The notes: a model not told the origin generated them from the letters alone. 64,000 nucleotides of DNA from an uncultured Oscillospiraceae bacterium (GCA_949293315.1 CASFCH010000055.1:12922-76921), one strand, 5' to 3'. Positions 5,114 through 15,671 are shown, counted from the stretch's first letter. Numbers and translations: made by a program.

Positions 5114-7354
5114 ATGGCAAGAAAAAAACAGGACCCCCGTCCCGCCAGGCAGGAGACAAACCCGAACGCCCACATCCTCGGCGCGGGCACCGTCGTGGAG
5201 CAGAAGATCACCGAGACGCTCGAGGTCAACTACATGCCCTACGCGATGAGCGTCATTCTCTCCCGCGCGATCCCGGAGATCGACGGCTTCAAGCCCTCGC
5301 ACCGCAAGCTGCTCTACACGATGTATAAGATGGGGCTTCTGAACGGCGGTCGCACCAAGTCCGCCAATATTGTGGGCACCACCATGCGCCTGAATCCGCA
5401 CGGCGACGCCGCCATCTATGATACGATGGTCCGCCTGTCCATGGGGTACGAGGCGCTGCTCCACCCCTATGTGGATTCCAAGGGCAACTTCGGCAAGGCG
5501 TACTCCCGCGATATGCAGTGGGCCGCCTCCCGTTATACGGAGGCCAGGCTCGCCGCCATCTCGCAGGAGCTCTTTTCCGATATTGATAAAAACACCGTCG
5601 ACTTTGTCGATAACTACGACGCCACCATGAAGGAACCCACCCTTTTGCCGGTGACATTCCCCTCCATCCTCGTCAACGCGAACACGGGCATCGCCGTCGG
5701 CATGGCGAGCTCCATTTGTTCCTTTAACTTGGCGGAGGTGTGCCATACGGCCATCGCCCTGATGCGCAACCCCGACCACGACGTGACGGACACGCTCAAA
5801 GCGCCCGATTTCACCGTGGGGGCCACCGTGCTCTATGACCGGGACGCCATCCGGAATGTGTATGAGACGGGCCGCGGCAGCATCCGCGTGCGCGGGAAGT
5901 ATGCGTACGACAAGGCGAATAACTGCATCGATATCACCGAGATTCCGCCCACCACAACCGTGGAGGCCATTATTGATAAGATCATCGAGAAGGTCAAGGC
6001 CAACGTGATCCGCGAGATAAATGATGTCCGCGACGAGACGGATAAGAGCGGCCTGAAGATCACGATCGACCTCAAGCGCGGCGCCAACCCCGAAAAGCTG
6101 ATGCAGAAAATCTATAAGATGACGCCGCTGGAGGACTCCTTTGCCTGCAACTTCAATGTACTGATAAACGGCGTGCCCCGTGTGCTCGGCGTTCGGGAAC
6201 TGCTGGGGGAGTGGACCGCCTTCCGTATGGGATGCGTCCGCCGCCGGACCCGGTTTGATCTGGACAAGGCGTCCTCTCGCCTGCACCTGCTCAAGGGACT
6301 GTCCAAGATCCTGCTCGATATCGACAAGGCGATCCGGATCATCCGGGAGACGGACGAGGAGAGCGAGGTCGTCCCGAACCTGATGATCGGCTTCGGCATT
6401 GACGAGACGCAGGCGGAGTACGTGGCGGAGATCAAGCTGCGCCACCTCAACCGTGAGTATATCCTCAAGCGCACCGCCGATATGGAGAGCCTGAAAAAAC
6501 AGATTGCAGAGCTGAAAGGCATTCTGGGCGACGATGAGAAGATCAAGGAGATCATCATCGGCGAGCTGGAGGAGGTCGTGCGCAAGTACGGCCAGCCGCG
6601 CAAAACCGATATCTGCTATGATCTGAGCGGGATTGATTCCGCCGCGGAAGAGGAGGAGATCCCGGACTATCAGGTGGATCTCACCTTCACGCGTGACGGC
6701 TACCTGAAAAAGGTGCCGGAGCTGAACGCCCGCCGCTCCACAGAGAACAAGCTGAAGGAGGGGGACGCGGTTGTCTACCGCGAGGTTGTCCCCAATACCA
6801 CGCAGCTGCTGTTCTTCACCGATAGGCAGCAGGTGTACAAGGCGCGTCTGAGCGACTTTGCCGATACCAAGATGAGCAATTTGGGCGAATATATCCCATC
6901 CGCGCTCGGCTTTGACCCGGAGGAGAAGGTCTTTGCCATGATCCCGCTGCAGAAGTACGAGGGATATATCATCTTTGTCTTTGAAAACGGCAAGCTGGCC
7001 AAGATCCCGGCGAGCTCCTATGAGACCAAGACGAACCGTAAAAAACTCATGAATGCCTATTCCGGCGCGTCGCCGCTTGTCAGCTGCCTGTATATCCCGG
7101 AGGACTGCGACCTGCTGATCTCCTCCACGTCGGGCAAGTATCTGATTCTGAATACAGCGCTCGTGCTGCCTAAGGCCACGCGCGATACGATCGGCGTCAA
7201 CGTCATGACGCAAAAGCGCAGCTGCGTCGTCAGCGAGGCGAAGGTCTTCACTCCCGGTGAGCTCTCCATGGATTACCGCTACCGGGCGCGCAAGCTCCCC
7301 TCCGCCGGCGTCATGCTCGCGGACGGGGACAATTCTGCGCAGCTTCACCTGTAA
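5114..7354 (+). CDS. Type IIA DNA topoisomerase subunit A (GyrA/ParC family, ParC-like)
   Basis: The active-site region AASRYTEARL is present. The protein is 746 aa, and I could not find a GyrA-box (QRRGGKG) in the C-terminal domain. Confidence 0.85.
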   Translation: MARKKQDPRPARQETNPNAHILGAGTVVEQKITETLEVNYMPYAMSVILSRAIPEIDGFKPSHRKLLYTMYKMGLLNGGRTKSANIVGTTMRLNPHGDAAIYDTMVRLSMGYEALLHPYVDSKGNFGKAYSRDMQWAASRYTEARLAAISQELFSDIDKNTVDFVDNYDATMKEPTLLPVTFPSILVNANTGIAVGMASSICSFNLAEVCHTAIALMRNPDHDVTDTLKAPDFTVGATVLYDRDAIRNVYETGRGSIRVRGKYAYDKANNCIDITEIPPTTTVEAIIDKIIEKVKANVIREINDVRDETDKSGLKITIDLKRGANPEKLMQKIYKMTPLEDSFACNFNVLINGVPRVLGVRELLGEWTAFRMGCVRRRTRFDLDKASSRLHLLKGLSKILLDIDKAIRIIRETDEESEVVPNLMIGFGIDETQAEYVAEIKLRHLNREYILKRTADMESLKKQIAELKGILGDDEKIKEIIIGELEEVVRKYGQPRKTDICYDLSGIDSAAEEEEIPDYQVDLTFTRDGYLKKVPELNARRSTENKLKEGDAVVYREVVPNTTQLLFFTDRQQVYKARLSDFADTKMSNLGEYIPSALGFDPEEKVFAMIPLQKYEGYIIFVFENGKLAKIPASSYETKTNRKKLMNAYSGASPLVSCLYIPEDCDLLISSTSGKYLILNTALVLPKATRDTIGVNVMTQKRSCVVSEAKVFTPGELSMDYRYRARKLPSAGVMLADGDNSAQLHL

Positions 7355-7399
7355 AAGCGTGTAAATGTAAAAGGCCGCCGTTAAAAAGAAAGATGTGCA

Positions 7400-7436
7400 G
7401 GGCCTCCGGCAGGTAATCGGCCGGAGGCCCCCTTTC
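7400..7436 (+). terminator. Hairpin terminator after the topoisomerase operon
   Basis: GGGCCTCCGGC...GCCGGAGGCCC forms an 11-bp stem. The T-tract (CCTTTC) is weak. Confidence 0.5.
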
Positions 7437-7442
7437 ATGCGG

Positions 7443-7471
7443 TTGCATTTTAATGGAGGAATATGTATAAT
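7443..7471 (+). promoter_or_regulatory. Putative promoter of the ZIP transporter gene
   Basis: TTGCAT-17-TATAAT, followed by a ~110-nt leader. Confidence 0.5.
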
Positions 7472-7583
7472 GTGGGTGTCACGCGTCTAAAACAAACATA
7501 GCAGAGGAATGCCGTGGCCCTTGCGGCCAAAACAAGCGGCACGCCGATCAGGGGGACGCACGCCTGATAGAAATGGATGGGCT

Positions 7584-8375
7584 ATGGATATGATTCTCTG
7601 GGCCGCCGGCGGGACCAGTTTCACGTTTTTGATGACGGCGCTGGGCGCGGCCACGGTGCTCTTTTTCCGCCGGGGGATCTCCGGCGTTTTACAGCGGATT
7701 TTTCTGGGCTTTGCCGCCGGGGTGATGATCGCGGCCTCTGTCTGGTCGCTCATCATCCCCGCCGTGGAGGAGGCGCAGGCGCAGGGGAAGATCGGCTGGA
7801 TCCCCGCGGCGGGCGGCTTTGTGCTCGGCGTGTTGTTTTTACTGGGGCTCGATTACCTGCTTCCGCATCTCCACCCCGGTTCCAAAGAGCCGGAGGGGCC
7901 GCATTCTCATCTGAAGCGGAGTACGCTGCTCGTCTTTGCCGTCACGCTGCACAATATCCCGGAGGGGATGTCCGTGGGGCTCTCCTTTGCGCTGGCGGCC
8001 CAGAATGCGGAGGACCCCTCCGCGCTCACGGCTGCTATGGCGCTGGCGCTCGGCATGGGCATTCAGAATTTTCCCGAGGGCGCGGCCATCTCCCTGCCGC
8101 TGCGGCAGGAGGGGGTCAAACGCGGCAGGGCATTCCTCTACGGCGCGCTCTCCGGGATCGTGGAGCCCGTCTTCGGCATCCTGACCGTGCTGATCGCGGG
8201 GGGGATCGCGCCACTGATGCCGTGGCTGCTCTCCTTTGCCGCCGGGGCGATGATGTATGTCGTTGTGGAGGAACTGATCCCGGAGGCGCACCTCGGCGAG
8301 CACTCCAATACGGGTACGCTCGGCGTCATGGCCGGCTTTCTGGTGATGATGGTCCTTGACATTGCGCTCGGATAG
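7584..8375 (+). CDS. ZIP family metal (zinc) transporter, GufA/ZupT-like
   Basis: ORF 7509..8375, with a probable start at MDMILWAAGG. It contains the HNIPEGMSVG and GIQNFPEGAAIS motifs and is polytopic. Confidence 0.8.
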   Translation: MDMILWAAGGTSFTFLMTALGAATVLFFRRGISGVLQRIFLGFAAGVMIAASVWSLIIPAVEEAQAQGKIGWIPAAGGFVLGVLFLLGLDYLLPHLHPGSKEPEGPHSHLKRSTLLVFAVTLHNIPEGMSVGLSFALAAQNAEDPSALTAAMALALGMGIQNFPEGAAISLPLRQEGVKRGRAFLYGALSGIVEPVFGILTVLIAGGIAPLMPWLLSFAAGAMMYVVVEELIPEAHLGEHSNTGTLGVMAGFLVMMVLDIALG

Positions 8376-8412
8376 CGGGATACGGCCAGGTGCAAAATTT
8401 TTGAATTGGGTG

Positions 8413-9048
8413 ATGGAATTGATCATAAAACCATTGACCAGAAACGCGCCCGCGCCCAGCGGCTTTTGGGGCAGGCTGATGATCTGCAAGATGAATGTCG
8501 GCCACGCGAGGATGACGGCATGGGCGTTTGGGCAGATCGACCTGAAAACGGCGCGCACCGTTGTGGACATCGGCTGCGGCGGCGGGAAGGCCGTTAAACG
8601 ATTGGCGTCGCTGGCGCCGGAGGCTGTCGTATACGGTGTGGACCGTTCGCCGCTGTGCGTGGAGCGGGCCGTGCGGGAAAACAGGAAGTCTGTCGCCGCC
8701 GGGCGGGTGGTGATCCGCAGCGGAAGCGCCGGGGCGCTCCCCTTCCCGGACGGCTCGGTGGATGTGGCCACCGCGGTGGAGACAGTCTATTTCTGGGAGG
8801 ACTGGCAGGCGGCGTTCCGGGATGTCCGCCGGGTGTTAAAGCCGGGTGGAATCTTTGCCGTTGTATGCGATATGGTGGACGATGATGGCGCCGGGCCTGC
8901 GCATTACCGGGAGGTCACGCGCCTGATCGAGATGCGGATCCCGAACCCGGTTCAGTTGGAGCGTGAGCTGGCGGATGCCGGTTTTACCAGGGTGATCATT
9001 TATCGCCATCCGGAGGAAAAATGGCTGTGCGCTGTGGGAATGAAATGA
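8413..9048 (+). CDS. Class I SAM-dependent methyltransferase
   Basis: SAM motif VVDIGCGGGK is present, along with VLKPGGIF. The start was chosen after the ZIP stop codon and is uncertain. Confidence 0.7.
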   Translation: MELIIKPLTRNAPAPSGFWGRLMICKMNVGHARMTAWAFGQIDLKTARTVVDIGCGGGKAVKRLASLAPEAVVYGVDRSPLCVERAVRENRKSVAAGRVVIRSGSAGALPFPDGSVDVATAVETVYFWEDWQAAFRDVRRVLKPGGIFAVVCDMVDDDGAGPAHYREVTRLIEMRIPNPVQLERELADAGFTRVIIYRHPEEKWLCAVGMK

Positions 9049-9062
9049 TTTATAGAGAAACG

Positions 9063-9091
9063 GGGAGCCCTGCAAGGGGCTCCCTGTTTTT
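9063..9091 (+). terminator. Rho-independent terminator
   Basis: GGGAGCCC-tgcaag-GGGCTCCC hairpin followed by TGTTTTT. Confidence 0.65.
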
Positions 9092-9311
9092 GATATCAGT
9101 TTATGGAAACGAAAAAACGTGTGCAAACTCTCCTCCGGTGAGGATCGTGCTCGTGATCTGCTGCGAAGAGCCCGGTACATTCGCGCCGGAATCGATTTTT
9201 CCGCCGTCGGGGTGGGCTCAAAGGTGGTGAAGACCGAATTCAGCCCTGTATCCCATATCCGGTGAAGGGACCTCAGGATAAGCTGTACACAGCGATACCT
9301 CGAATCCCGGA

Positions 9312-10010
9312 TCAAGCTCCTTTGCATGCGGCGATGAATGCGTCGAACAGCGCCTGCTGCAGCGCGTCTTTTTGGCTCAAATGCTCTGGATGCCATTGGA
9401 CGGCCACCAGAAATCCGTAGTCGGGCTTTTCCAGCGCCTCGATAAAGCCGTCCGGGCTTTTGGCCGTGGGCACAAGGCCCTTGCCAATCGTCTTTACCGC
9501 CTGGTGATGGATACTGTTGACCGTTATTTGCGCGTTCTGAACGATCTCATACAGCTTGGACGTGCGGCTGATCTCTACGGGGTGGGTGCCGCGCGCGCGG
9601 TTCAAAAAGTCGGAGTGCCGGGACTGCTGGCGGTCCTTGATATCCTGAAACAGCGTACCGCCAAAGAACACGTTCACGATCTGGATACCGCGGCAGATCG
9701 CCAGTATGGGCTTGCCTGTTTTCATAAATTCGCGCAGGATGGCGGGCTCGGCTGCGTCGCGGAGCACGTTCGGCTTTCCGCACTTCTCCGAACGGTCTTC
9801 GCCGTAGAGTTCTGGGGCGACATCGGCCCCGCCCGGGAGCAGAAGTCCGTCGCACTCAGCCGCTTTGCGGGCTGCACCGGACGGATCCTCAAGCTCGATC
9901 CAACTGACCTCGCCGCCCGCCCGCGCAATACTCTGCACATATTTGCTTTTCATATACTTGCGAAAAAGACTGTTCCCCATCTGGGGCATTGCGATTACAG
10001 CTTTTCCCAT
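9312..10010 (-). CDS. Class I glutamine amidotransferase-like hydrolase (peptidase C26 / PuuD-like)
   Basis: ORF 9312..10079, with a probable start at MGKAVIAMPQ. It contains the LAICRGIQ nucleophile elbow and the HHQAV / WHPE motifs. Confidence 0.8.
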   Translation of the reverse strand: MGKAVIAMPQMGNSLFRKYMKSKYVQSIARAGGEVSWIELEDPSGAARKAAECDGLLLPGGADVAPELYGEDRSEKCGKPNVLRDAAEPAILREFMKTGKPILAICRGIQIVNVFFGGTLFQDIKDRQQSRHSDFLNRARGTHPVEISRTSKLYEIVQNAQITVNSIHHQAVKTIGKGLVPTAKSPDGFIEALEKPDYGFLVAVQWHPEHLSQKDALQQALFDAFIAACKGA

Positions 10011-10066
10011 AAAGAACCTCTTTCGTCTGATTGCACTGAATTGTACTATTATATTATCAAATTTTA

Positions 10067-10095
10067 TTGACCTTGTCAAATAATTGTGCTATGAT
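10067..10095 (+). promoter_or_regulatory. Putative promoter of the C-S lyase/permease operon
   Basis: TTGACC-17-TATGAT within an AT-rich divergent intergenic region. Confidence 0.4.
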
Positions 10096-10134
10096 CAATA
10101 ATAAAGTATTATATTGTATTTTATAGGGGGGTTG

Positions 10135-11916
10135 ATGATGAAATACGATTTTACAAGTGTTCCGGATCGTTCGAAGTGCGGATCAATGAAATGGGACAGC
10201 GCGCCCGGTGCGTCAACGGAGTATGTGCCGCTGTCCACGGCGGATATGGAGTTCCCAACTGCGCCGCCGATCGTAGAGGCCATCAAAAGCTGTGCCGAGA
10301 AACAAATCCTCGGGTACAGCCAGCCCACGGAGGAATATTATGATGCGGTGATCAGCTGGCAGAAGCGCAGGCACGGCTTTGACATCAAAAAGGAATGGAT
10401 CCTCACCACACCGGGGGTGGTCGACGCGCTGGCGGTCATCATCGACGCCGTCACCAAGCCGGCGGAATCGGTCATCATCCTCACCCCTGCTTACTACCCC
10501 TTTGATCTTGCCGTAACGGCGAAAAGCCGTAAAATCGTTTACAGTGAGCTGATCGACCATAACGGCCACTATGAGATCAATTTTAACGATCTGCGCGCCA
10601 AAGCCGCGCGAAAGGAGGTCACGGCGCTGCTCTTCTGCAATCCGCATAACCCCACAGGCCGGGTGTGGACGCGCGAGGAGCTCAAAAGGGTCGCCGACAT
10701 CTGCTGCGACAACGGCGTATTTATCATCGACGATGAGATTCACAACGATATCATCATGCCCGGATTTGAGCATACGGTGATGGCGACGGTCAGCAAAAGG
10801 GTCCTGAACAATATTGCCGTGTGCACGGCGCCGAGCAAGACATTCAATCTGGCGGGTTTGCAGTGCTCCAATATCATCATCCCCAATGACCTTGCAAGAA
10901 CGCGCACCATGGCGTGTTCGCTCATCAATATGACGATGCAGCTGAATGTTTTTGCGTATCCTGCGTGTATTGCGGCCTATACAAAATGCGATGAATGGCT
11001 TGAGGAGATGATCGCGGTCGTCCAGAGCAACGCCGATCTGGTAAAATCGTTTATGGCGGAGCATTTCCCCGCGGTGCGGGTAATAGAGCTGGAGGGTACA
11101 TATCTGCTATGGCTCGATGTGCGCGGGCTGGGGCTCACACATGTGGAAATGCGTCAGATGCTTGTGAAAAATCATCTCTATCTCGATAACGGAGAGATGT
11201 TCGGCCGGGCGGGCAGGGGCTACCAGCGGATCAATCTCGCCTGTGCGCGTGTAACGCTTGAAAAGGCGTTGAATCGTTTTAAAGATGGCATGGATGCCGT
11301 TTATGCCGAGTGGGAGAAAAACGGCCGGCCATATCATAAAACGCTCAAGGTCGGCGACCGGCTGGAGGGCTTTGTATATGATTTGCCAAACGGATCCGGC
11401 ACGGAGCTTCGACCGGGTCGCTCTACACTGATTATTTTCAGCCGCTATTACGGCTGCCAGATCTGCATGGCCACGCTTCAATTTGTCAAGGGGATCTATC
11501 CGCTCCTAAAAGCCGCAGGGGGCGACGTAAAATTTGTCATGCAGTCGGATATGCGCACACTTGCACCGGCTCAGAGTAAATATCCGTTTGAGTTGATCGC
11601 CGACCCGTTGTGCAAGCTGTATGACCGGTACAATGTGTTCGAGGCGGACAGCCCGTTTGGCATGATATTGGGCGATAAAATTATCAGTAAAATCATCGGA
11701 AAAGATGTCAAACGCATTCTTCATTCAGGGGCGTTTGAGGGGCTGGCCCAGTCCCTCCTCGGGGATTCGGATGATACCGATGGAGGACCGCGCGCCCTGC
11801 AGCTTCCTGCATTTATAACTGTTGATAAAAACCTGAAGGTGACCTATGCCTATTATTCGAAGACGATGGCAGACTTACCGAATATTAAAGAGATTTTGAG
11901 GGGGATAAAAGCGTAA
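10135..11916 (+). CDS. Fusion protein: MalY/PatB-type PLP C-S lyase (aminotransferase class I/II) plus a C-terminal peroxiredoxin-like (Prx_like2, thioredoxin-fold) domain
   Basis: The N-terminal ~390 aa (MKYDFTSVPDRSKCGSMKWD..., SKTFNLAGL) resemble PatB/MalY. The C-terminal ~200 aa carry FSRYYGCQIC, FELIADP and LPAFITVD, as in AhpC/TSA-like redoxins. Confidence 0.7.
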   Translation: MMKYDFTSVPDRSKCGSMKWDSAPGASTEYVPLSTADMEFPTAPPIVEAIKSCAEKQILGYSQPTEEYYDAVISWQKRRHGFDIKKEWILTTPGVVDALAVIIDAVTKPAESVIILTPAYYPFDLAVTAKSRKIVYSELIDHNGHYEINFNDLRAKAARKEVTALLFCNPHNPTGRVWTREELKRVADICCDNGVFIIDDEIHNDIIMPGFEHTVMATVSKRVLNNIAVCTAPSKTFNLAGLQCSNIIIPNDLARTRTMACSLINMTMQLNVFAYPACIAAYTKCDEWLEEMIAVVQSNADLVKSFMAEHFPAVRVIELEGTYLLWLDVRGLGLTHVEMRQMLVKNHLYLDNGEMFGRAGRGYQRINLACARVTLEKALNRFKDGMDAVYAEWEKNGRPYHKTLKVGDRLEGFVYDLPNGSGTELRPGRSTLIIFSRYYGCQICMATLQFVKGIYPLLKAAGGDVKFVMQSDMRTLAPAQSKYPFELIADPLCKLYDRYNVFEADSPFGMILGDKIISKIIGKDVKRILHSGAFEGLAQSLLGDSDDTDGGPRALQLPAFITVDKNLKVTYAYYSKTMADLPNIKEILRGIKA

Positions 11917-13310
11917 TGGCAGTCAAAACAGAGTCTCCTGCCAAGGAGAAAAAGAAGCTGGGCGTCCTGGGGATGGCGAGCTACGGCATCGGAAACAGTA
12001 TTGGCTCGGGAATTTTTGTGATGATTGGGTCGGCTATCGCCGCAACGGGGAAAAGCCTCCCGTTCGCCCTTGTACTGGCGTGTGTGGTCGTCTTTTTTGC
12101 GTATCTTTACAAAACATTTATGGCGGGCATGTTTGTAATGCCGGGCGGGCGTTACAGTCAGCAGGCGCTCTTACAGCCGCCGCTGCTGGTAGGCGTCTCC
12201 GCGATCTCCATGGTGTTCTCCGGCCTCGCCTTTGCCATGTATGGCCTGTCCATTGCGGAGTACGCGGCGGAGGTCTTCCCGGTGCTGGACAATTACCGCG
12301 AGCTGATCGCACTTGTCATTATCACGATTTTCTTTGCCACCACGCTGCTGGGCGGAAAGGTGATGGGCATATTAAACGTAATCATGGTGGGCGTTTTGAT
12401 TATTTCCCTGCTGATATACATCGCGGTGGGGCTGCCCAAGGTCGACTGGGCCTCCGTCAATCCCTTCTCCGAAGGGTATTTTGGGGGCGGCGTTACAGGC
12501 TTTATCTATGCGGTGGCTTTGCTCAGCTTTGCCTGTCAGGGTTCCACCATGCCCATTGACATGACCTCCGACGCGAAGGACCCCAAGCGGACGCTCCCCA
12601 AGGCGATTATACTCTCTTCGGTCGTGATCCTTGTCGTCTATGTTCTCATCGGGATTGTTTCGTCCGGCGTGCTGCCCGTTGAGGCGGTGGCTGACAAAAA
12701 TCTCGGCGTCGTGGCGCGAGAGATTTTCCCCTATTCCGTATTTCTGATCTTCATGATCGGCGGTGCGTGCTTTGCCATTGCCACCTCGCTCTACAGTGCG
12801 ATCGCCGGCATCCGCTATCCGCTGATGGCGACGGTGGAAGATGGATGGCTGCCGAAGTTCCTCGGAATCAAGACAAAAAAGCGTGAATATCCCTGGGTGA
12901 TGATGCTCCTTTTGTACCTGATTGCCGTCATCCCCATCTTTGTAGATTTTGGGCTGGATGAATTGGTTTCTGTCATGATGATTCCGATCATGGTGCTCAA
13001 TACGATCAATAATCTGTTCATGATCAAACTGGTCAAAAAATATCCGCAGGCCTGGAAGCACAGCTTTTTCCACATGCCCAAGCCGGCGTTTTACGCCTCC
13101 ATGATATTTGCGATGTTCTGCTCGCTGATTATCACGGTAAGCCTGTTCACGCAGCTCGGCGGCTGGAAAAAATATGCGATGATCGCGATGGTCATATTCC
13201 TGTTTGTCTACAGCTATTACAGGCTCAAGGCGGGTAAGGTGGATCTGCGTGAGATTGAAGAGGCCCATGCCGAGGCGGAAAGGGCGGCCGCCAGTGAAGA
13301 GGCAGAATAA
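11916..13310 (+). CDS. APC superfamily amino acid permease
   Basis: 464 aa with ~12 predicted TM segments. Its start overlaps the upstream stop (TAATG), suggesting translational coupling. Confidence 0.8.
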   Translation: MAVKTESPAKEKKKLGVLGMASYGIGNSIGSGIFVMIGSAIAATGKSLPFALVLACVVVFFAYLYKTFMAGMFVMPGGRYSQQALLQPPLLVGVSAISMVFSGLAFAMYGLSIAEYAAEVFPVLDNYRELIALVIITIFFATTLLGGKVMGILNVIMVGVLIISLLIYIAVGLPKVDWASVNPFSEGYFGGGVTGFIYAVALLSFACQGSTMPIDMTSDAKDPKRTLPKAIILSSVVILVVYVLIGIVSSGVLPVEAVADKNLGVVAREIFPYSVFLIFMIGGACFAIATSLYSAIAGIRYPLMATVEDGWLPKFLGIKTKKREYPWVMMLLLYLIAVIPIFVDFGLDELVSVMMIPIMVLNTINNLFMIKLVKKYPQAWKHSFFHMPKPAFYASMIFAMFCSLIITVSLFTQLGGWKKYAMIAMVIFLFVYSYYRLKAGKVDLREIEEAHAEAERAAASEEAE

Positions 13311-13339
13311 GCAGATAGAATAATAGAAAGACCCAGTAT

Positions 13340-13381
13340 AAAAGGGCGCGTTGCAGAATAGGCTCTGCAACGTGCCCCTTT
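13340..13381. terminator. Bidirectional terminator between convergent operons
   Basis: AAAGGGCGCGTTGCAG...CTGCAACGTGCCCCTTTT hairpin flanked by an A-run and a T-run. Confidence 0.6.
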
Positions 13382-13386
13382 TATCA

Positions 13387-13881
13387 TCATGCTGCCGTGA
13401 TGGACAAATTCCCGGAAAAGCTTTTCCCAGCAAGGACAATATAGTTATCCCCCTCGGAGAGGGTGATCGCATACGTACCTGTTTCGGTGTCCGCGGCGAT
13501 GGGATGGCGTGTTCCTTTCTCCAGCCAGTAGAGTGATGCGCTGCCGGCTGTGACCTCAAGGGTATAGGCAACGGTTAAGGATTGCCCACCGCCGCGCCGC
13601 AGTGAGGTGCCGCCGAAAAGGATTTCCTCTCCGCTAAAGTCTCGATAGTCCGCCGTGTAGTGACCGGTATAGGAGTCCTCGCCCAGTTCCCGTTCTCCGA
13701 CCAGCTTGGAGTCCCGCGTCAGTGCATAAGGGCTCACTGACTGTAAAAATTCGTTGAACCCGTTTAGAATTTTTTCCTTTGCGGTGTTAGCGCCATCCCG
13801 TACCACGGCAGTACAGCCCGCCGCCAGCAGCAGACAGACACCCAGCAATAGGATGGCCGTCCCGCGCTTGATCCGTCTCAT
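13387..13881 (-). CDS. Lipoprotein of unknown function (possible LanI-like immunity lipoprotein)
   Basis: Signal peptide with lipobox LLAAGC. It is the last gene of the LanFEG-type operon. Confidence 0.6.
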   Translation of the reverse strand: MRRIKRGTAILLLGVCLLLAAGCTAVVRDGANTAKEKILNGFNEFLQSVSPYALTRDSKLVGERELGEDSYTGHYTADYRDFSGEEILFGGTSLRRGGGQSLTVAYTLEVTAGSASLYWLEKGTRHPIAADTETGTYAITLSEGDNYIVLAGKSFSGNLSITAA

Positions 13882-13893
13882 GAAAATTCCCCC

Positions 13894-14178
13894 TTACGCC
13901 AGCGCGGAGTAAAGCGCCCATGCGCCAAGTACCAGTCCGCCGAAGGCGTACACGTCGTTGATGACCATGCAGATCTGCATCAGCTTGTTTTTAACGCCGC
14001 CCTTGGCATAGCATACGCTTGTAAAAATGCCGCTGAACACCATAAAGGCGATGTAGCAGCCGATCATAATTTCTGCAACGGGGGATTGAAGCGCCCAGTC
14101 GTGCATGCGGAACAGAAAAATGGTCCACGGAACGAACACCATCACCGAACTGACGGCAGTGAGTAATTTGTTTTTCAT
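13894..14178 (-). CDS. Small membrane protein with three TM segments (NukH/LanH-like by size and topology only)
   Basis: 94 aa with three hydrophobic segments. It lies immediately downstream of the permease genes. Confidence 0.55.
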   Translation of the reverse strand: MKNKLLTAVSSVMVFVPWTIFLFRMHDWALQSPVAEIMIGCYIAFMVFSGIFTSVCYAKGGVKNKLMQICMVINDVYAFGGLVLGAWALYSALA

Positions 14179-14184
14179 GATCGA

Positions 14185-14949
14185 TTATCTCCTTTCACTT
14201 TTTCCAAAGAGCAGGCATGCGCCTGTCAGGCAGACGATTGTGATGCCGATGGCCATCGGGAGCAGGGGAATCAGATCCAAGTGGGTGTCGCCGTTCGGCA
14301 GCCCATTCATCAGGATCATGATCCGGTAGAACGGATAGCACATCGGATAGGCAAACCACACCTTGGTGTTGATCGCCAGTACAGACGGAACGATGGATGC
14401 CAGTCCGATCCCCATGGAAAAGATCGGGGTGCGTACGCACACGGCAATCAGCCAGAAGACGGCCGCCATCGGGATACCGGACAGGTAGAAGATCCCGGCC
14501 TCCCGCAGGACAAACAGCGGGGAGAGAATCAGGTTGTAGTCGTTCAAATGCGAAACGATTGCTGCGCAGGGATAATAGCATACGGTCATCAATACAACCT
14601 GTACAGCCGCCAGCAGGAGCAGGACAGCGAATTTTGCCGCGCACAGTGCCGCAGGGGTGACGGGGAGGGCGAGCATTTTCAGGATGCCGCCGTGGCTGCG
14701 CTCCGTTTGGACGAGCAGTACCGTGCACACGACCATGGAGGCGGGGAACATGAACCACGCCAGCCCCATAAAGCTCTGAATAAAAAAGTTGTGCTCCGGG
14801 GAGAGCCCTTCGGTTGCGGGGTTCATGATAAAATCGTAATTGACGAGCGTCGGGATCCACAGCAGGATCACCGGGATGAGCAGGATCCAAAAGATATGCG
14901 AGCGGCGGATCTTTTGCAGTTCCACCCCGATCAGCTTAAAAAAGTTCAT
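14185..14949 (-). CDS. Lantibiotic-immunity-type ABC-2 permease (MutE/EpiE/MutG family)
   Basis: The true start MNFFKLIGVELQKIRRS lies inside ORF 14185..15213. The start overlaps the upstream gene (ATGA). Confidence 0.75.
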   Translation of the reverse strand: MNFFKLIGVELQKIRRSHIFWILLIPVILLWIPTLVNYDFIMNPATEGLSPEHNFFIQSFMGLAWFMFPASMVVCTVLLVQTERSHGGILKMLALPVTPAALCAAKFAVLLLLAAVQVVLMTVCYYPCAAIVSHLNDYNLILSPLFVLREAGIFYLSGIPMAAVFWLIAVCVRTPIFSMGIGLASIVPSVLAINTKVWFAYPMCYPFYRIMILMNGLPNGDTHLDLIPLLPMAIGITIVCLTGACLLFGKSERR

Positions 14950-15671
14950 GCATAACGCCTCCTCACTTTTAAGAGAATGGCCTCCGCCAGCACAGTCAGT
15001 ACGATCTCGGCGGCGCAGCCCGCCAGCGTGGCGAAAATCCAGGTGGAATCTTCCGCTCCCGCCAGTGTCTGGAAGGGGAGGGAGAATGGGAAAAATGAGA
15101 GAATCCGATTGTCGGTCGGCAGTACACTCACGGTAAAGATGCAGATCACACCGGCGCCCAGCGTAATCCACATATTCCGGCACAGGGAAGAGAAAATCAT
15201 CAGAATAATACATGGCGGGATCATCAGCGCAAAGGTATATTCTAAATTCTTGAACAGTGCGGTGAAAAGTCCGCTCTGTTCGGGGAACCAGTACAGCGCG
15301 CAGAACGCCAGCGCGATGTGCTCGATTACCAGTGCGGCGAGCAATGCGATCATCAGGATGACCGTTTTATCAAAAAAGAGTTTTCCGGCGCTGACCGGCA
15401 GGCTCTCCATCTTCTGAATAGCGTTGCCGGAGAACTCCGTGTGGTACAGTATACACGCGCCGATTGCCGCCAGGCAAAGGTTCAGCATAATGATCATTTG
15501 CCCGTTGGCGTTCATCAGAATATCCAGTGCCGGGAGCGGCTGCCCCGTAAACATCTCCGGCCGTGCCGCTGTGTTCAGCAGTGGGAAAAGCGCTGCGATT
15601 GCCCCGCCTCCCAGAATCGCCGGGAAGAATCCGGTCCGTTTGAGTTTTTTGAGTTCCAGCTGAAAGGTCAT
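14946..15671 (-). CDS. Lantibiotic-immunity-type ABC-2 permease (MutG/MutE family)
   Basis: Begins MTFQLELKKLKRTGFFP, has six TM-like segments, and overlaps the ATPase gene stop. Confidence 0.75.
   Translation of the reverse strand: MTFQLELKKLKRTGFFPAILGGGAIAALFPLLNTAARPEMFTGQPLPALDILMNANGQMIIMLNLCLAAIGACILYHTEFSGNAIQKMESLPVSAGKLFFDKTVILMIALLAALVIEHIALAFCALYWFPEQSGLFTALFKNLEYTFALMIPPCIILMIFSSLCRNMWITLGAGVICIFTVSVLPTDNRILSFFPFSLPFQTLAGAEDSTWIFATLAGCAAEIVLTVLAEAILLKVRRRYA

Follow-up and report, generated by a model that had tools for sequence, protein, structure and literature searches.

A PatB-type C-S lyase fused to a diverged thioredoxin-fold domain, and its gene neighborhood in gut Clostridia

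Results

A 64,000-nucleotide stretch of DNA from an uncultured Oscillospiraceae bacterium (GCA_949293315.1 CASFCH010000055.1:12922-76921), referred to in its entirety as the window, encodes a protein in which a PatB/cystalysin-type C-S lyase is continued in the same reading frame by a thioredoxin-fold redox domain. The arrangement of related genes gives strong evidence that PatB, this redox domain, and an APC-superfamily amino acid permease may be placed in a shared pathway. It is further proposed, with moderate confidence and at about an even chance, that the fusion, the permease, and a divergently encoded gamma-glutamyl hydrolase of the Peptidase_C26 family constitute a three-gene accessory module of gut Clostridia, which would scavenge a cysteine-derived compound carrying a gamma-glutamyl group, a disulfide, or both. 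The favored candidates for this substrate are gamma-glutamyl-cyst(e)ine and cystine.

The open reading frame (ORF) of the fusion extends from a TTG at 10114 or an ATG at 10135 to the stop codon at 11914-11916 and would encode 593-600 residues, with no internal stop codon or frameshift. Translation probably begins at the second ATG (10138) and yields a protein of 592 residues, since homologues begin MKYDF and an AGGGGGG ribosome-binding site is located 7 nucleotides 5′ of this codon. For comparison, 80 loci were retained from 80 species-level genomes, and PatB and the redox domain share one frame in all of them. An original prediction, made from the sequence of the window, had placed both domains in a single ORF, and this was upheld; nothing was found of the frameshift or stop codon separating two genes that it had named as grounds for abandoning the idea.

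The architecture, which had also been called unusual, is not rare. Relatives were detected in at least 106 species-level genomes in a scan of one genome per species, and the survey of domain architectures that had been suggested, performed as a database search with the C-terminal region, yielded 143 clusters that carry the redox domain, nearly all of 580-618 residues with PF00155 together with a redoxin-type match. The host metagenome-assembled genomes (MAGs) belong to Acutalibacteraceae, Oscillospiraceae, Ruminococcaceae, Lachnospiraceae, and “Ca. Fimenecus” and originate from mouse, sheep, yak, buffalo, deer, rabbit, and human (Hadza) guts. Two loci (L071 and L079) came from MAGs labeled Bacteroidaceae, all others being from Bacillota, which may be due to contamination during binning or to lateral transfer. 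In the family to which the window belongs, the fusion has a patchy distribution (3 of 81 genomes, 2 of 80 genera), and the block that carries it has a G+C content of 0.531 compared with a window mean of 0.581 (standard deviation 0.03). The block was thus correctly described as AT-richer than its surroundings, but only modestly so, since an equally low value is reached in 5% of equal-sized windows. Both the patchy distribution and the mild AT-richness of the block would suit an accessory module that moves laterally, although composition by itself is an unremarkable signal.

Related loci were assigned to groups by tblastn with the window's own proteins at an E-value of 1e-6. Group A comprises 33 of the 80 loci, the window included, and is spread across several families; here, the C26 gene and the APC permease gene are both found beside the fusion. 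Loci of group B have neither. In a maximum-likelihood tree of the redox domain, groups A and B, all of which are fused, form one clade with 100/100 support. The locus from one of the two MAGs labeled Bacteroidaceae (L079) lies on a long branch within group B.

Assignment of the N-terminal domain to the PatB/MalY type, as originally proposed, was secured by the TIGR04350 PatB model, which matched residues 6-384 with 378.5 bits (380 bits in the genome search) against a cut-off of 340. No second PatB above this cut-off was present in the genome to which the window belongs. The closest solved protein by sequence is Treponema denticola cystalysin (1C7N, E = 1.5e-101), a cysteine/cystine C-beta-S-gamma lyase, and Foldseek comparison of the AlphaFold model with cystalysin gave a target-normalized template modeling (TM) score of 0.96 at 40% identity. 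The pyridoxal 5′-phosphate (PLP) motif A-P-S-K235-T-F-N is present, and the 78 full-length family sequences show no variation at residues Y120, Y121, N172, D200, H203, S234, K235, and R365. From the 1C7N alignment and the known cystalysin site, we take Y120, Y121, N172, D200, H203, and R365 to be active-site equivalents. The catalytic site of the lyase domain is intact, and beta-elimination would be the expected reaction.

Cysteine residues that cystalysin lacks at the aligned positions are a further feature of the lyase domain. C190, C230, and C370 are invariant, and C15, within the motif R-S-x-C-G-S-x-K-W, is found in 31 of 34 group A sequences. Given that C15 is located in the N-terminal segment that, in PatB-type enzymes, contributes to the active-site entrance, it could serve as a relay partner for Cys441 of the redox domain. 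When loss of Cys15 was compared with loss of Cys444 across the family, no clean correlation emerged.

Profile searches of both domains, which had been suggested as a check, gave a clear result for the lyase through TIGR04350, but the redox domain of the window itself remained below threshold in Pfam. Its C-terminal 181 residues matched Redoxin with an E-value of 0.015 and AhpC-TSA with E-values of 0.018-0.18, and scores of 12.2-15.4 bits fell short of the gathering threshold for PF00578 (26 bits). The best NCBIfam match, NF040769 (SelL_rel_redox), covered model positions 20-171 of 173 with 43.2 bits (E = 3e-11), under a cut-off of 120. The assignment was secure over 22 homologous domains that were scanned, all of which matched NF040769 (best E-value, 8e-19); PF00578 was matched by 21 of these at E ≤ 0.01 (best, 2.9e-15), and PF13911 (AhpC-TSA_2/Prx_like2) was matched by 15. 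At the family level, the thioredoxin fold of this domain is therefore secure.

Structural comparisons were consistent with this fold. A single-sequence search of the PDB with the redox domain returned one weak match (5ENU, E = 0.2), and the family profile retrieved ResA, with the C-E-I-C of the family aligned on the C-E-P-C of ResA. The domain-only AlphaFold model, with a predicted local distance difference test (pLDDT) score of 80.5, matched Bcp/PrxQ, 1-Cys peroxiredoxin (Prx6), ResA, and PRXL2B with target-normalized TM scores of 0.7-0.8 and an E-value of 4e-9; sequence identity to the peroxiredoxin structures is 10-18%. Residues ∼505-550, a stretch of about 40 residues, form a low-confidence helical insert in the models.

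In the AlphaFold model, Cys441 lies between a strand (residues 430-435) and a helix (residues 442-460), which is the classical thioredoxin active-site position at the N terminus of helix α1. Of the CxxC, UxxC, or UxxU motifs that characterize SelL-related/Prx_like2 proteins at the start of this helix, the first is present as C441-Q-I-C444. By contrast, the peroxiredoxin motif PxxxT/SxxC is absent: the window reads I-F-S-R-Y-Y-G-C441-Q-I-C444, with neither proline at −7 nor threonine or serine at −3 of either cysteine. Cys441 is conserved in 74 of 77 sequences. Position 444 is occupied in group A (n = 34) by Cys (29), Ala (4), or Thr (1) and in group B (n = 43) by Thr (21), Cys (15), Ala (6), or Ser (1). 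Thioredoxin-fold nucleophiles derived from CxxC keep the N-terminal cysteine and vary at the resolving position, and Cys441, kept while the second position varies, is read here as the N-terminal nucleophile.

The redox domain is thus peroxiredoxin-like by fold and thioredoxin/ResA-like by motif. Identity as a canonical peroxiredoxin was rejected because PxxxT/SxxC is absent and the conserved cysteine is the first of the CxxC (or CxxT/CxxA), so the “peroxiredoxin-like” description given originally applies to fold and superfamily but not to the catalytic motif. In sequence terms, the domain is best described as a diverged branch of the SelL-related CxxC family.

The domain profile identified 1159 relatives among 1.84 billion representatives. 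Many of these are standalone proteins of ∼180 residues with an invariant FLRYYGCxxC...HGxYEGxELQLPA signature, in which the CxxC is strictly invariant; the HGxYEGxELQLPA portion of this canonical signature has been lost in the redox domain of the window. Neighborhoods of the canonical form were inspected at 78 metagenome loci, where apparently lone genes often sit on short contigs and the frequency of PatB linkage is consequently a floor. The canonical family is tied to PatB, fused or beside it, at 26 of these loci. In 11 cases, the domain is fused to a more distant PatB that is 33-45% identical to the lyase of the window; in 14, a separate PatB is encoded on the same strand, including five with PatB directly upstream and five PatB-APC permease-redox operons; and in one, PatB is divergent. 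Chance adjacency to a gene present once or twice per genome would be expected at ∼1%. A distant APC permease (29-37% identity) is present at 10 canonical-family loci, and a C26 gene is present at none of the 78.

The canonical clade of the domain tree intermingles fused, PatB-adjacent, and lone forms, and the well-supported branches require that fusion state changed four times or more. It is this repeated fusion or fission with the same partner, together with recurrent recruitment of an APC permease, that places the three proteins in a shared pathway. The import, cleavage, and thiol chemistry route put forward originally gains from their recurrence in both fused and split arrangements; its selenium variant is weakened, selD being absent from the genome.

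A search for standalone-type redox proteins across 399 genomes belonging to the class of the window identified just one, at L086 (G284:C26). The gene is situated between a PepC/bleomycin-hydrolase-like aminopeptidase gene and a metallo-beta-lactamase/flavodoxin (flavodiiron-like) gene, as judged by eye from the translations, and this setting was uninformative. Separately, a 573-residue frame in another genus of the window's family (G074:C49:22878-23318) gave a weak match to the redox profile (E = 1.4e-21). This frame is possibly a canonical-type PatB fusion, in which case a single bacterial family may harbor two lineages of the fusion.

The C26 gene, which the original prediction did not mention, is the most informative neighbor of the fusion. 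Among the 80 loci it never occurs without the permease, and in group A it is mostly divergent from the fusion; at one locus (L004), it is on the same strand, 30 nucleotides upstream of the fusion, and the permease is divergent. The C26 protein reached 106 bits with the PuuD model NF008471, under the equivalog cut-off of 266, so by annotation its substrate is not gamma-glutamyl-gamma-aminobutyrate. Its best solved relatives are Lin1909 (3FIJ, 3e-43) and PuuD (6VTV, 1.6e-27). It is also the strongest PF07722 match in its genome, the other two being partial matches of 26-35 bits in longer ORFs. Elsewhere in this genome, a thioredoxin reductase is encoded, and neither GGT nor, at 97% completeness, selD was found.

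The permease gene adjoins the fusion at 36 of 80 loci. Its proposed coupling to the fusion through a TAATG overlap was confirmed at 11914-11918, where the stop codon of the fusion overlaps the permease start, and its membership of the APC superfamily was supported by PF13520 (124 bits). The permease reached no substrate-specific NCBIfam equivalog model. Coordinates of the features of the locus are collected in Table 1.

Table 1. Features of the fusion locus, in window coordinates
Feature	Coordinates	Strand	Details
Fusion gene, PatB/cystalysin-type C-S lyase plus thioredoxin-fold redox domain	10135..11916	+	593 aa; 592 aa from 10138
PLP-dependent C-S lyase domain	10150..11286	+	Residues 6-384; PLP lysine K235 codon 10837-10839
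Thioredoxin-fold (Prx_like2/SelL-related) domain	11341..11913	+	Residues ∼403-593; C441-Q-I-C444 codons 11455-11466
APC-superfamily amino acid permease, 464 aa	11916..13310	+	PF13520 123.9 bits (cut-off 27), PF00324 69 bits
Peptidase_C26/class-I glutamine-amidotransferase-type gamma-glutamyl hydrolase, 232 aa	9312..10010	-	PF07722 194 bits (cut-off 20.5); divergent to fusion
Back-to-back promoter-like sites sharing palindrome TTGACCTTGTCAA (10067-10079)	10051..10095	.	Promoter scan
Intrinsic-terminator-like hairpin	13344-13377	+	14-bp stem, 9 G-C pairs, T-rich tail; closes two-gene operon (fusion plus permease)

The C26 and fusion genes are separated by an intergenic region of 124 nucleotides with a G+C content of 0.274. 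Promoter-like sites were recognized on both strands, TTGACC-17-TATGAT with a TG on the plus strand and TTGACA-17-TAATAT on the minus strand, and their −35 hexamers make up the shared palindrome. The pattern TTGAC-N3-GTCAA recurs in 23 of 27 group A C26-fusion intergenic regions, although the flanking sequences cannot be aligned; it could be a candidate operator for a regulator or simply a pair of face-to-face promoters. An Rfam E-value scan of window positions 7000-15000 gave no riboswitch, T-box, or leader. In nine group A relatives (L006, L007, L013, L014, L019, L023, L031, L047, and L069), the 5′ leader, between the promoter and the fusion start, contains an additional G+C-rich hairpin with a T-run after it, which has the look of a leader terminator or attenuator; this hairpin is absent from the window.

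Two recurrent settings were seen in group B. In the first (L035, L043, L046, L050, L052, L055, L062, L064, L066, and L070), the fusion is accompanied by genes for a DtxR-like repressor, GH30, an MFS_2 transporter, an OYE-type flavoenzyme, an SDR, and a FAD_binding_2-type flavoprotein. In the second (L037, L041, L042, L044, L048, L053, L057, L077, and L085), an unassigned gene of 352 residues ends at the start of the fusion, and DUF4838, GH42, TrpB-like, and M23 genes are close by.

Further upstream in the window, a ZupT-type zinc transporter gene (7509-8375) and an S-adenosylmethionine methyltransferase gene (8356-9048) share 20 nucleotides at the listed TTG start of the methyltransferase gene. 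The best matches of the latter were to the DVU_1556 family and to arsenite-methyltransferase-like models, all of them under cut-off.

Discussion

The findings can be accommodated by the following scheme for the three-gene module. The APC permease would import the cysteine-derived compound, and the cytoplasmic C26 hydrolase, to judge from its family and linkage, would strip the gamma-glutamyl group. The cystalysin-like PLP domain would then catalyze alpha,beta-elimination to pyruvate, ammonia, and a sulfur leaving group. As a nucleophile, Cys441 could open the disulfide of the substrate (cystine or gamma-glutamylcystine) before cleavage, thereby feeding the lyase, or could attack the cysteine persulfide released by cystine cleavage. 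Cys444 would resolve the resulting mixed disulfide, with H2S or a thiol being freed, and the disulfide left in the domain would be re-reduced by the cellular thioredoxin system. In relatives with CxxT or CxxA, the resolving step would be performed by an external thiol.

Several observations weigh against this scheme. Family membership and linkage are all that point to the substrate, and APC permeases usually carry single amino acids rather than a gamma-glutamyl dipeptide. Group B, which accounts for ∼44 of the 80 loci, has neither the C26 gene nor the APC permease and has glycoside hydrolases and MFS_2 transporters nearby, so the C26-APC module is not the sole context of the family. In addition, Gly replaces Cys441 in three group B members, and residues D490, E503, Q556, Y574, and D580 are invariant and better conserved than the cysteines of the redox domain. 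Such conservation of polar residues points to a specific surface for a ligand or partner and is a hint that the domain may bind something or act outside redox chemistry.

A bolder proposal, which is tentative and which we hold with distinctly less confidence, is that the fused domain serves specifically as a reductase of persulfides or disulfides (or of sulfenates) that takes the sulfur leaving group directly from the PLP site, within a widespread and unrecognized pathway of gut and rumen Clostridia that consists of PatB, this peroxiredoxin-fold CxxC family, and an APC permease. If true, this pathway would set whether cyst(e)ine-derived compounds are released as H2S, persulfides, or thiols, and through the C26 partner it would also take in gamma-glutamyl cysteine compounds from the host or from plants.

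The main rival to persulfide or disulfide chemistry is capture of a sulfenic acid, which amounts to the same chemistry with a different leaving group. Here, the lyase would resemble alliinase and act on dietary S-alk(en)yl-cysteine sulfoxides (S-methylcysteine sulfoxide (SMCSO) of brassicas, alliin-type compounds, and gamma-glutamyl precursors); Cys441 would capture the reactive sulfenic acid as a mixed disulfide and Cys444 would free the thiol, so that antimicrobial thiosulfinates are averted. Such a role would suit a peroxiredoxin-like fold, which is built for sulfenate chemistry, and is in keeping with the herbivorous and omnivorous hosts from which the MAGs were recovered and with solved PatB complexes with L-alliin (9KAU and 9JWC, by their entry titles). 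The C26 partner is suited to gamma-glutamyl S-alk(en)yl cysteines, which are storage forms in plants (PMC6966203). However, these gamma-glutamyl forms are mostly non-oxidized thioethers, cleavage of which would yield plain thiols that need no redox partner, and the closest solved relative of the lyase is a cysteine/cystine lyase rather than an alliinase. We regard sulfenic acid capture as rather unlikely.

Less probable again is a redox sensor, regulatory, or structural module, in which the domain gates the lyase or mediates a protein-protein interaction (compare MalY-MalT) and does not act on substrate or product. The three members without Cys441, the many without Cys444, the non-cysteine polar nature of the invariant residues, and the 40-residue low-confidence helical insert would all be compatible with such a module. 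Group B genes, moreover, lie in sugar-utilization contexts like that of E. coli malXY, MalY being a PatB homologue (1D2F); this setting recalls MalY in the mal system and may reflect a different substrate or a regulatory role. Against this, the standalone family retains a strictly invariant CxxC and is repeatedly linked to PatB and a permease as separate genes, which is awkward for a pure structural appendage, and group A, to which the window belongs, has the complete CxxC in 29 of 34 sequences.

A selenium route, comprising import and cleavage of Se-methylselenocysteine, selenocystine, or their gamma-glutamyl forms with the CxxC trapping selenol or selenide, is very unlikely. The best NCBIfam match is to a SelL-related family, and gamma-glutamyl-Se-methylselenocysteine is a storage form in plants. 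C-S lyases are also able to cleave C-Se bonds (PMC7070735). Nevertheless, without selD the genome would have no use for selenide, no family member has an in-frame TGA at the cysteine positions, and compounds of selenium are far less abundant than the corresponding sulfur compounds.

It is harder still to credit a genuine peroxiredoxin or thiol peroxidase that shields an oxygen- or peroxide-sensitive lyase. The top Foldseek matches are indeed Bcp/PrxQ/1-Cys peroxiredoxin structures, and many homologues score on PF00578, but the identity to those structures is low, FSRYYGCQIC lacks the peroxidase signature, and the conserved cysteine is N-terminal in the CxxC, as in ResA. Finally, a sequencing or assembly artifact joining two genes is next to impossible and was rejected, because all 80 loci, from 80 independent species-level genomes, share the in-frame fusion; the near-uniform length of the 143 clusters and the AlphaFold model of the full-length protein (pLDDT 86, predicted TM score 0.84) agree with this.

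The proposed route bears on sulfur metabolism in the gut. Microbial C-S lyases are among the main producers of reactive sulfur species such as H2S and methanethiol in the gut and rumen, and these compounds act on the epithelium and influence how much methane is produced and what becomes of dietary organosulfur. A built-in redox domain, together with the split-gene versions, suggests a step, left to chance in current schemes, at which a disulfide substrate would be reduced or a persulfide or sulfenate product captured. The fusion module is a testable addition to gut sulfur metabolism and not a new principle.

Each domain and each neighbor comes from a known superfamily. The fusion, the diverged SelL-related clade, and the module of C26 hydrolase, lyase/redox fusion, and permease are undescribed in searchable literature or annotation; full-text literature searches gave no description of a PatB-thioredoxin-fold fusion or of a bacterial module of C26 with a C-S lyase. 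The few clusters named by NCBI carry the name “PatB family C-S lyase” alone, and because the genes are annotated only in this way, neither the second domain nor the module can be recognized from the annotation.

To our knowledge, all characterized PatB/cystalysin enzymes are single-domain proteins. The N-terminal 390 residues of the fusion resemble cystalysin (1C7N) and the PatB/MalY lyases (Bacillus subtilis PatB, 6QP3; Clostridioides difficile, 4DGT) in fold and in all catalytic residues. Whereas those enzymes end at ∼390 residues, the window enzyme adds a thioredoxin-fold domain of 190 residues and the invariant C190, C230, and C370. That domain shares the thioredoxin/peroxiredoxin fold, and a CxxC at the start of helix α1, with SelL-related/Prx_like2 proteins (PF13911; PRXL2A and PRXL2B, of which PRXL2B (9USA) is among the fold matches) and with ResA/TlpA. 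It differs from the canonical SelL-related family, which keeps HGxYEGxELQLPA, in the loss of this motif, in its score (43 versus 120 bits), in its own all-fused clade, and in the frequent replacement of the second cysteine by Thr or Ala.

Coupling of a sulfur enzyme to a cysteine-based acceptor or reductant has precedents in the Trx-MsrA-MsrB protein PilB of Neisseria, in SufS-SufE and CsdA-CsdE, and in the cystine lyase C-DES. The logic is shared with the fusion by analogy only; the catalytic families differ, and homology is not implied.

In concept, the closest parallel is the plant pair GGP1 (Peptidase C26) and SUR1 (C-S lyase), which convert a gamma-glutamyl-cysteine conjugate to a thiol in glucosinolate and camalexin synthesis (e.g. 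PMC11449216 and PMC7180059). As in the window, a C26 gamma-glutamyl peptidase is paired with a C-S lyase of the class-I aminotransferase fold. The plant system is biosynthetic and has no gene clustering, fusion, or redox domain, whereas the module of the window is bacterial, presumably catabolic, and includes a permease. The linkage to a C26 gene suggests that bacteria have an equivalent of the GGP1-SUR1 route for processing gamma-glutamyl cysteine conjugates.

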